Shown piece by piece: positions 6,001 through 9,000 of a stretch of 13,586 nt of DNA. The stretch is from a virus (Duplodnaviria; Heunggongvirae; Uroviricota; Caudoviricetes), in IMG/VR virus record IMGVR_UViG_2897352509_000015, one strand, 5' to 3'. Position numbers: made by a program. Numbering within the stretch: the stretch's first letter is position 1; every line of letters starts with the position of its first letter.

Positions 6001-9000
6001 GCTGGTAAATGACTGGTATCCCACAGCAAGTATCAGCGATTTGCTGGTTGTGGTGATGAAGAAAGCCACCGCAGGCATCAGTATCAGCTGAATTTTATAA
6101 CCCATATACGGGCGCCAGAAATGGCGCCTTTTTTATTGCAGAAAAGCGAGAGGTAATTATGCGTAAACTTTATGCCGCCATTTTGTCCGCAGCCATCTGT
6201 CTGGCCGTATCCGGCGCGCCTGCATGGGCGTCTGAGCAGCAGGCCACGCTGAGCGCGGGGTATCTTCATGCCCGGACGAGCGCTCCCGGTAGCGATAATC
6301 TTAACGGGATTAACGTGAAATACCGTTATGAGTTTACGGACACACTGGGGATGGTGACGTCATTCAGCTATGCAGGAGACAGGAATCGCCAGCTTACCCG
6401 TTACAGCGATACCCGCTGGCATGAAGATTCCGTGCGTAACCGCTGGTTCAGCGTGATGGCGGGGCCCTCTGTGCGCGTGAATGAATGGTTCAGCGCGTAT
6501 GCGATGGCGGGTGTGGCTTACAGCCGTGTGTCGACTTTCTCCGGGGATTATCTCCGCGTAACTGACAACAAGGGGAAAACGCATGATGTGCTGACCGGAA
6601 GTGATGACGGTCGCCACAGCAACACGTCTCTGGCGTGGGGAGCTGGCGTGCAGTTTAACCCGACCGAATCCGTGGCCATTGATATTGCTTATGAAGGCTC
6701 CGGCAGTGGCGACTGGCGCACTGACGGCTTCATCGTGGGTGTCGGCTATAAATTCTGATTAGCCAGGTAACACAGTGTTATGACAGCCCGCCGGTTCAGG
6801 CGGGCTTTTTTGTGGGGTGAATATGGCAGTAAAGATTTCAGGTGTACTGAAAGACGGCACAGGAAAACCGGTAGAGAACTGCACCATTCAACTGAAAGCC
6901 AGACGGACCAGCAGCACGGTGGTGGTGAACACGGTGGCCTCTGAAAATCCGGATGAAGCCGGTCGTTACAGCATGGACGTTGAGTACGGTCAGTACAGCG
7001 TCATTCTGTTGGTGGAAGGATTCCCGCCGTCACATGCCGGGACCATCACCGTGTATGAAGATTCTCAACCCGGTACGCTGAATGATTTTCTCGGTGCCAT
7101 GTCGGAGGATGACGTCCGGCCGGAGGCACTGCGTCGTTTTGAACTGATGGTGGAAGAAGCGGCGCGTCACGCTGAGGAGGCGAAGAAGAATGCCGGAGAG
7201 GCGGAGACGTCCGCGAGGAATGCCGGCATATCAGCCAGTCAGGCAGAAGAGAACGCTGCAAATGCTGACACTTCAGCAGGGGATGCATCGGAGTCAGCCC
7301 GGCAGGCGGCAGAAAGTGCAGCCGCTGCAAAGCAGTCAGAGGAGGCGTCCTCGTCCTCGGCCTCTGCGGCCGCTCAAAAAGCCAGTGAGTCATCACAAAG
7401 TGCAGCAGAAGCTGAATTGTCAAGAAAGACGGCAGAAAGTGCAGCCGGTAATGCATCCAGGGATGCAACGACCGCAGCAGAAAAAGCCCGGGAGTCAGCA
7501 GAAAGCGCACAGTCAGCGGAACAAAGCAGGATAGCGGCGGAAGAAGCCGTAAACAGAATCCCCACCGTGGTGGGACCTCCCGGGCCAAAGGGGGAACAGG
7601 GGCCCGCGGGTCCTCAGGGGCCGAAGGGTGATAAGGGAGAGCGCGGTGACACCGGCCCTGTCGGGGCAACCGGCGAACGGGGACCGGCAGGTGATGCTGG
7701 TCCGGCAGGCCCGCAGGGGCCGAAAGGTGACAGGGGAGAGCGGGGAGAGACCGGTCTGACGGGAAATGCAGGTCCACAGGGTCCAAAGGGAGATACCGGT
7801 GCGGCAGGCCCGGCAGGCCCACAGGGACCGAAAGGAGAAACAGGTGCGACTGGCCCGGTGGGGGCAACCGGACCTCAGGGACCGAAGGGCGACCCGGGGG
7901 AGACACAAATCCGTTTTCGTCTGGGGCCGGGAAACATTATTGAGACAAACAGCAATGGCTGGTTCCCGGATACAGATGGCGCACTCATCACCGGACTGAC
8001 CTTTCTTGCCCCCAAAGATGCCACACGGGTTCAGGTTTTTTTTCAGCATTTGCAGGTCAGGTTTGGTGACGGGCCGTGGCAGGATGTTAAGGGGCTGGAT
8101 GAAGTGGGCAGTGATACAGGCAGAACAGGAGAATGACATGAACATATTAAAAAAAATTATGCAGCGTCTGTGCGGTTGCGGAAAGCATGATGACTGTGAA
8201 CACGGGCAGTCGCTTACAGTACAACTGCGACTGGGGCCGGCAGACATCCTGGAGTCAGATGAGAATGGCATTATCCCGGAGCAGGTCAGGGTAATCACGC
8301 AGGTGGTGATACTGGATGCGGATAAAAAGCAGATACAGTGTGTGGTAAGACCGCTGCAAATCCTGCGTGCTGACGGGACGTGGGAAAATATTGGCGGGAT
8401 GAAGTAACCCGACAGCTTCACAAAACCGGAGTCCGGCTCCGGTTTTTGTTGTCATGTCCGGTGGATGTTTGTTAATGAAGACTTGAGGGAATATTTATCC
8501 GTATGAAGGAGCATGGTAATGCCTGGATTAATATCATATGTGTCATCGGCTTCATTCGTGAATGAGATGATGGAGCTGCGTCAGCAGGTAATGGAGGGGC
8601 AGATTGGTGGATTTCTCCTGGGAGGGGAGAGGGTTAGAGTTTCTTATATGCCAGATACAGGCCGTTTTTTAGCAGAAAGTGAAGGGCAGGGACGGGTTTA
8701 TGCAGAATTATTGAATATTGCTTTTAATGATGGAGTTAATGTGCTCAGAAACAGGATATTAAGTGCGCTCCCTGGAATGGGAGGGCGAAACTCTTTGCAG
8801 GAAAAAATATCGGAGTGTGCCTTTACTGTCGATATTGAAAAACTTCAGTGTCCTGGTGATGCGCTTCAATGTCCAATTACACTGGAGCAGCCTGAAAAAG
8901 GTGTTTTTGTGAAGAATTCAGATGGTTCAGATGTATGTACTTTATTTGATGCCGCTGCATTTTCTCGTTTGACTGGTGAAGACTTACCCCACCCACTGAC

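Follow-up and report, generated by a model that had tools for sequence, protein, structure and literature searches.

Why should a side tail fibre gene be followed at once by a second, free-standing copy of its own tip domain, at the position that tfa occupies in phage lambda? The question arises in a window of 13,586 nt (the whole stretch of DNA analyzed here), a degraded lambdoid prophage that lies at dusA in Escherichia coli O157:H7. In the RefSeq view, the window is a short degraded prophage adjoining dusA, with an integrase, a DinI-like gene, three DUF1076 (NleG-type) effector genes, lom, and early-region pseudogenes; J is present as its 3' end only. With the head genes and the greater part of the tail genes lost, the fibre and the small gene behind it could not build a virion on their own. 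The integrase, about 2.6 kb downstream and on the opposite strand, is the sole recombinase of the annotated region. Many E. coli O157:H7 chromosomes match the 1.6 kb around the two genes at 100% identity, and 4745 of 5426 complete E. coli genomes have related copies of this stretch (median 2, maximum 18 places per genome). The features of the locus are collected in table 1.

Table 1. Features of the fibre locus (coordinates refer to the window)
Feature	Coordinates	Strand	Evidence and remarks
Side tail fibre gene	6823..8136	+	437 aa from ATG 6823; RefSeq WP_000268945
Collagen-like Gly-X-Y region	7573..7905	+	Fibre residues ~251-361; Pfam PF01391
Portable block: collagen end, PfC, 89-aa ORF, and terminator	7587..8457	+	Single blastn segment against 933W, 95.3% over 872 nt
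Fibre-borne PfC domain (trimerizing C-terminal knob)	7909..8100	+	Residues 363-426; PF06820, 120.6 bits, profile 1-64/64
Coupling junction	8127..8140	+	AGGAG 8127-8131, fibre stop TGA 8134-8136, C 8137, ATG 8138-8140; read from sequence
89-aa ORF	8138..8407	+	27-residue N-terminal extension 8138-8218 and stand-alone PfC 8219-8404; RefSeq WP_001023355
Intrinsic-terminator-like hairpin with U-tract, closing the fibre/small-ORF unit	8422..8450	+	RNA fold -21.2 kcal/mol, z = -5.4 against shuffles

The fibre, labeled "prophage tail fiber N-terminal domain-containing protein" in RefSeq, has the PfN-coiled coil-collagen-PfC architecture of the "EPclA" type, Pfam placing PF08400 on residues 1-133, PF01391 on residues 251-309 and beyond, and PF06820 on residues 363-426. 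Its 5' ~117 codons share 88% DNA identity with lambda stf, and residues 1-93 match the N-terminus of Ur-lambda Stf (PDB 9e7m, E-value 2e-51). The collagen region contains two direct-repeat families (D1 and D2) of GXY-coding units, and the variable positions of the fibre PfC cluster at tail positions 9, 10, 17, 22, 35, 41, and 45. An in-frame GTG lies at 6817, upstream of the fibre ATG. EPclA fibres were described by Ghosh et al. (2012; PMC3368898) as a PfN domain, a trimeric coiled coil (PCoil), a collagen triple helix (Col), and a PfC domain. In that work, the fibre ORF cloned alone in E. coli BL21 folded and was trimeric; Col-PfC fragments were also trimeric and refolded reversibly at once after heating; PfC was a terminal knob ~7 nm across that nucleates refolding of the collagen helix; and an isolated PfC construct (363-426) could not be expressed alone (PMC3368898). 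The downstream PfC-only gene is nowhere mentioned in that paper (PMC3368898).

The initial annotation had proposed that the C-terminal ~65 residues of the fibre are paralogous to the next gene, and pairwise alignment confirms a similarity far beyond chance. BLASTP aligned fibre residues 363-425 with residues 28-88 of the small ORF at 20/63 identities (32%, E-value 2e-10), and the Smith-Waterman score of 93 compares with 22.6 ± 3.9 (maximum 43) in 2000 shuffles (z = 18). Moreover, the PF06820 profile (Phage_fiber_C; 64 positions, gathering cut-off 25 bits) matches both modules end to end at about 1e-34, with 120.6 bits for fibre residues 363-426 and 117.8 bits for small-ORF residues 28-89. By these alignments, the ~64-residue C-terminal end of the fibre is a paralogue of small-protein residues 28-89. 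The shared DNA words noticed at the outset, such as ctggggccgg, do exist, although amid only 54% nucleotide identity between the modules (99/183 in the codon alignment); ctggggccgg is the longest in-register shared run (10 nt), and a DNA repeat finder left the fibre-tip/small-ORF duplication undetected. The annotation's reservation that the downstream ORF might belong to an unrelated, well-characterized family holds only in a narrow sense: the ORF does fall into a named family (PF06820, and PHROG 576, an 89-position "tail fiber protein" family that matches it end to end, 1-89/89, E-value 2.5e-59), but one that is functionally uncharacterized and that is the family of the fibre tip itself. RefSeq labels it "phage tail fiber C-terminal domain-containing protein." The description of the locus as a free-standing copy of the fibre tip domain where lambda has tfa is therefore correct.

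The small gene starts 1 nt past the fibre stop, as first described, with an AGGAG Shine-Dalgarno sequence 6 nt upstream of its ATG, and is translationally coupled to the fibre gene. A consensus terminator scan missed the hairpin behind it (8422-8446), which RNA folding confirmed; the hairpin is kept in 933W and WGPS8, and homology stops just beyond it, at ~8457. A RefSeq "tail assembly protein" pseudogene at 8409-8486 was considered as a trace of tfa ancestry and rejected, since the terminator hairpin lies within its span and lambda Tfa shows no similarity to it. Within the leader of the small protein, LCGCGKHD is conserved among relatives. The Cys/His cluster CGCGKHDDCEH is present here as reported, but the full set is a feature of this allele and not of the family: C12, C14, and H17 are nearly constant, whereas C20 is an arginine in 36 of 59 haplotypes and H22 an asparagine in 12 of 59, so that the conservation of all ligands expected of a Cys/His metal-binding motif is not seen across the family. 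A lipoprotein or other signal peptide in MNILKKIMQRLCGC was discarded by eye, as 11 residues with three charges precede the cysteine and a hydrophobic core is missing.

By surveying 80 IMG/VR loci together with 933W, WGPS8, and the RefSeq copy, we found the small gene to be constant in both place and length. A search of other prophages for the 89-aa ORF beside collagen-like fibres had been suggested, and it returned the same junction throughout, with an identical 1-nt stop-to-start gap in all 81 loci whose upstream sequence is visible. The ORF is exactly 89 aa long in 84 of 84 copies with a recognizable start, which represent 36 distinct sequences. Every fibre surveyed ends in a PfC of the fibre type and every small ORF carries one of the small-ORF type; the small gene always accompanies PfC-ended fibres. 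In line with this, tblastn found the fibre module and the small-ORF module in 296 phage records each, the organisms breaking down in nearly the same way and the small ORF showing 93-98% identity, and the exact small-ORF protein occurs on at least 1000 public contigs. The family is nevertheless very narrow: its named matches are Escherichia, including E. albertii, and Citrobacter rodentium, and an exhaustive HMM search of 1.84 billion proteins gave just 79 hits, counted as representatives at 50% identity and mostly fragments and chimeras.

Selection has acted unevenly along the unit. Pairwise Nei-Gojobori estimates among 59 haplotypes, which rank the regions clearly even though the pairs compared are not independent, gave a dN/dS of ~0.08 for the PfC domain of the small ORF (pS 0.13), 0.23 for its 27-residue leader, 0.26 for the fibre PfC, and 0.39 for the preceding collagen. 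The small-ORF domain is under strong purifying selection.

The two modules also travel together. Homology to 933W starts at 7587, inside the collagen-coding repeats, and the rest of the window has no other match in the fetched 933W late region; the fibre N-termini of the two phages are unrelated, the anchor of the window being lambda-like. The distal fibre and the small gene form a single unit of 0.87 kb that passes between Stx/lambdoid phages with long and with short tails. True tip exchange more plausibly takes place upstream, in the collagen repeats, taking PfC and the small gene together.

Part of this has been described before. Working on the Stx2 phage Sp5, Mondal et al. (2016; PMC5155283) deleted genes of unknown function in frame, found the fibre ORF67 to be essential, and located it at the tail end by immuno-EM. 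Their ORF68 (ECs1229), an 89-aa polypeptide consisting of PfC only, is listed among the non-essential late genes, and they proposed that it serves as a "reservoir" (PMC5155283). The observation and the cassette idea are thus already published, and the gene is annotated and very common in EHEC prophages; what is new here is the constant pairing, the block co-transfer, the purifying selection, the virion peptides, the lack of tip-switched fibres, and the variable third cysteine. The virion peptides come from phi24B, for which a cryo-EM preprint describes six lateral fibres of a homologous protein, whose collagen shaft and small C-terminal globular domain at the distal end were not resolved (10.64898/2026.04.10.717836). 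In its proteome supplement on purified virions, two of the listed peptides, VITQVVILDADKK and ADGTWENIGGMK, match the small ORF exactly and do not occur in the fibre; the authors list both under "gp59," annotated "Spike or just gp59?", and leave them undiscussed in the text of the preprint (10.64898/2026.04.10.717836). Each is represented by ~3 spectral matches, against 150-180 for the top fibre peptides, and the part of the file covered here holds no leader, extension, overlap, or junction peptides. The small protein could therefore be a contaminant of these virions or a strongly sub-stoichiometric component.

The small gene is a real, translated, and selectively maintained late gene. For its function we favor, at a probability of roughly 55%, the reading in which the 89-aa protein, translated but dispensable in the laboratory, acts as an accessory partner of the distal fibre knob. 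The side fibre runs from a lambda-Stf-type anchor through a coiled coil and a collagen triple helix to a small PfC knob at its C-terminus; we infer that the 89-aa protein most likely forms a trimer of its own and binds or caps this knob through like-with-like PfC contacts. It may act during assembly or as a minor virion component, and would tune the stability of the fibre or adsorption in natural hosts without being needed for particle formation. Paralogy, translational coupling, intact length, selection, co-occurrence, co-transfer, the virion peptides, and the trimerizing nature of PfC knobs all argue for such a partner. Against it count the non-essential Sp5 homologue, the ability of the fibre to trimerize alone, the low number of virion peptides, and the want of covariation: variants of the fibre knob and of the small-ORF leader showed no significant association (permutation p = 0.056, all combinations present), in a comparison that is confounded by linkage.

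A more specific version, which we put forward only tentatively and consider unlikely as it stands, is that duplication of the knob has given rise to a new type of accessory factor, a separate trimer formed through the N-terminal helix and the conserved CxC...H that would sit on the knob as a removable cap. The CxC...H residues might then make a disulfide knot or an axial metal site holding the small-ORF trimer. Such a cap, if real, would alter adsorption, host range, or fibre retraction in natural hosts bearing O-antigen, and its action in those hosts would explain why the gene is dispensable on K-12 yet strictly conserved. Collagen-like fibres are borne by Shiga-toxin phages and by many effector-carrying EHEC prophages, and the phi24B preprint counts the binding target of the knob among its unanswered questions (10.64898/2026.04.10.717836). 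A conserved, co-transferred knob paralogue is a clear lead for host range and the spread of toxin genes.

Of the three functions initially suggested, a stand-alone tip-domain protein fits the data, whereas a relic is contradicted by the selection and the peptides and a spare cassette finds no support, which narrows the options to a functional protein. The spare receptor-binding cassette, also the proposal of Mondal et al. (2016; PMC5155283), would be a reservoir, silent or semi-silent, whose recombination with the fibre gene gives the fibre a different tip. The modules are indeed homologous and adjacent, and rearrangements among them do occur, as in an assembly (L084) that carries a fibre, then a chimera that joins the 5' end of the small ORF to the fibre tail, and then a small ORF. 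This chimera (P0117) is, however, a plain 280-bp tandem duplication whose out-of-register junction skips ~10 aligned residues, and a collagen-to-small-ORF fusion (P0065) sits in the first bases of its contig; neither is an in-register swap, and both were rejected as tip switches. The expected variant junctions that fuse the fibre body to the downstream module did not appear, since a fibre with a small-ORF-type PfC was found in 0 of 81 loci, in none of 169 protein clusters, and in none of the 79 library-wide representatives, the two PfC types forming separate groups at ~32% identity. Moreover, 54% DNA identity with a longest run of 10 nt is too short for efficient homologous exchange, and because both modules lie in direct orientation on the + strand, a crossover would delete the cassette instead of switching it. 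The annotated region and a repeat search revealed no invertase, reverse transcriptase, or bracketing repeats near the fibre gene, the latter search returning only the collagen and coiled-coil repeats and three weak inverted pairs at chance level. Nor would a silent cassette need a conserved Shine-Dalgarno sequence, ATG, and 27-residue leader of its own, and we judge this function quite improbable. Still less credible is a functionless, decaying relic of an internal duplication, a reading that is already largely refuted: a family of 79 representatives in 1.84 billion proteins, dispensability in the laboratory (PMC5155283), and many truncated or chimeric copies in draft assemblies would suit it, but a dN/dS of 0.08 with appreciable synonymous divergence, the invariant length, start codon, and Shine-Dalgarno sequence, the phi24B peptides, and retention of the gene in both morphotypes do not.

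Two further possibilities concern how the small ORF is expressed and what its product does. A programmed +1 frameshift or transcriptional slippage could fuse the two ORFs into a longer fibre, as the small-ORF frame is open back to 8006 and a T8 run (8036-8043) lies within the overlap; the 933W annotation has a 129-aa extended version, and the phi24B authors placed two fusion sequences in their search database (10.64898/2026.04.10.717836). Yet the run is not conserved (Val-Phe-Phe in 3 of 59 haplotypes, with Leu/Met variants that break it), frameshifting at this site would exchange the second half of the fibre knob for other sequence, Mondal et al. saw no frameshift signal (PMC5155283), and junction, extension, and N-terminal peptides are absent from the part of the phi24B proteome file covered here, so that a fusion of this kind is hardly to be expected. 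The small protein might alternatively be a Tfa-like assembly chaperone that guides the knob into its fold as a template, or makes it fold faster, and for the most part leaves afterwards. Its gene is in the tfa position, directly after the fibre gene and translationally coupled to it, the amount in phi24B virions is low, and the failure to express the isolated fibre PfC hints at a domain that is hard to fold. On the other side, Pfam and NCBIfam give no Tfa family match (only PF06820) and there is no similarity to lambda Tfa; the full fibre trimerizes in E. coli BL21 without the small protein, and the Col-PfC fragment refolds unaided after heating (PMC3368898); and the Sp5 homologue is listed as non-essential (PMC5155283). 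A chaperone role is in our opinion doubtful, though it deserves to be kept in mind beside an accessory partner of the knob.

Comparison with known systems places the gene more precisely. Sp5 ORF68, 933W L0122, and phi24B "gp59" are the same gene, with ~93-96% identity, 89 aa, a 1-nt gap, and the same terminator; the small ORF of the window falls into the Sp5 ORF68/933W L0122 orthologue group, defined by a length of 89 aa, at least 90% identity, and a start 1 nt after a PfC-ended collagen-like fibre gene. These three phages differ from the window in being short-tailed and in having a fibre with another N-terminal anchor, two collagen stretches, and Pf2 repeats, whereas the block lies here on a lambda-Stf-type anchor in a defective remnant of a long-tailed prophage. 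The fibre of the window shares the PfN-PCoil-Col-PfC architecture of EPclA fibres (PMC3368898); the isolated PfC was inexpressible there, whereas nature keeps a stand-alone PfC with a 27-residue leader. In lambda stf-tfa and in the fibre-Tfa pairs of P2 and Mu, the late operon likewise has a small gene immediately behind the side-fibre gene. The Tfa chaperone of Mu and P2 can remain on the fibre tip. Those pairs are unrelated to ours in sequence; the small protein of our locus is paralogous to the tip of the fibre that it accompanies, and this fibre does not need it to fold. Of the marks of a Tfa protein, the small ORF has the downstream position but neither the family membership nor, according to the literature, a need for it in trimerization or infectivity (PMC3368898; PMC5155283). 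Mu Gin/S-S', P1 Cin, and diversity-generating systems (DGRs) also have two neighboring alternative copies of a fibre C-terminal module, but in the window the copies are in direct orientation, with no invertase, crossover sites, reverse transcriptase, template/variable repeats, or switched products. In T2-type phages, the distal end of the trimeric fibre bears gp38, a small protein with a gene of its own. It offers the closest functional analogy for a cap, with no homology; infection depends on gp38, which also sets host range, whereas Sp5 can do without its homologue on K-12, and virion association is only weakly indicated here.

Structure prediction was of no help. The small ORF had no sequence match in the PDB, and its AlphaFold2 monomer, built on a 10-sequence alignment, reached a pLDDT of 42, which made it unusable for a fold search; because the HMM search had yielded so few matches, mostly fragments and chimeras, the alignment could not be deepened. 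A more distant relative with several modules (P0174) was modeled at a pLDDT of 66, and Foldseek of this model against the PDB found nothing below an E-value of 0.016 (TM ~0.1). It belongs with metagenomic phage fibres (for example P0151 and P0173-P0221) in which 2-5 PfC-like modules are interspersed with collagen in one chain. Their similarity spans residues 52-89 of the small ORF (profile search, E-value 3e-10), and a profile built from them matched this segment only, leaving the fibre PfC unmatched. PfC-like modules can thus lie in series along one fibre, an analogy that is consistent with, though no proof of, a small-ORF trimer stacking on the knob. The contigs that encode these multi-module fibres also carry XkdX, a GDSL lipase, and a peptidoglycan-binding lysin.

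Amino-acid variation in the fibre knob, the PF06820 domain (PfC) at 7909-8100, was confined mostly to a few sites (9, 10, 17, 22, 35, 41, and 45, numbered over the last 76 residues), each showing three or four alternative residues, whereas the corresponding domain of the 89-aa small ORF was nearly invariant. The variable sites of the fibre knob are candidate ligand-contact loops. The isolated PfC of the fibre (residues 363-426) could not be detected when expressed by itself and needed a thioredoxin fusion (Ghosh et al. 2012; PMC3368898, Methods). In nature, by contrast, a free-standing PfC is kept in the small ORF, where a 27-residue leader precedes it; the leader may thus be what renders the free domain viable.

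The frame of the small ORF is open for 44 codons 5' of its ATG (8006-8137), across the end of the fibre gene, and the annotation of the short-tailed Stx2 phage 933W includes a 129-aa version of the small ORF. A T8 run (8036-8043) lies within the overlap of the two frames; this T-run is not conserved, and the searched part of the phi24B proteome data contained no peptides from the overlap region.

In one E. coli assembly (GCA_005381265, contig BDKZ01000033; locus L084, 1382-3246), the fibre gene is followed by a 92-aa hybrid, composed of the 5' 119 nt of the small ORF and the last 159 nt of the fibre, and then by a normal small ORF. This arrangement is a 280-bp tandem duplication spanning the gene junction, and both TGA-C-ATG junctions are kept. 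In metagenomic phage fibres retrieved by the exhaustive HMM search (proteins P0151 and P0173-P0221; locus L087, 5001-6041), two to five PfC-like modules alternate with collagen stretches, an architecture that the Pfam description "C-terminus" does not cover. The phages encoding them are apparently of Gram-positive type. Several of these proteins begin with half a module at the N-terminus, which suggests truncated gene calls.

About 10.8 kb of the window (1300-12084) is a degraded prophage at dusA, in which the fibre gene and the 89-aa ORF are nevertheless intact. From the truncation of J and the early-region pseudogene abutting it, it follows that the prophage has lost its head genes and the majority of its tail genes by deletion.

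Features flanking the fibre block and delimiting the prophage remnant
Feature	Position	Strand	Remark
dusA, short partial copy	near 1318-1422		
J, 3' end alone	5369-6091		adjoins early-region pseudogene of opposite strand
Terminator-like hairpins	6110-6129 and 6785-6806		either side of lom (6159-6758)
DUF1076 genes (NleG-type type III effector)	8519-9091, 9164-9793, 9875-10516		three in tandem
Integrase	10987-12084	minus	
dusA, intact	12173-13210		

The RefSeq "tail assembly protein" pseudogene of 78 nt (8409-8486) is overlapped by a terminator hairpin, and no similarity was found between it and lambda Tfa; it is thus probably a spurious call. The DUF1076 genes lie directly 3' of the fibre-block terminator, at the site where lambdoid prophages of EHEC usually carry their cargo. 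The fibre gene begins about 15 nt past a hairpin that is strong and has a T-tract, and its expression would require antiterminated late transcription.
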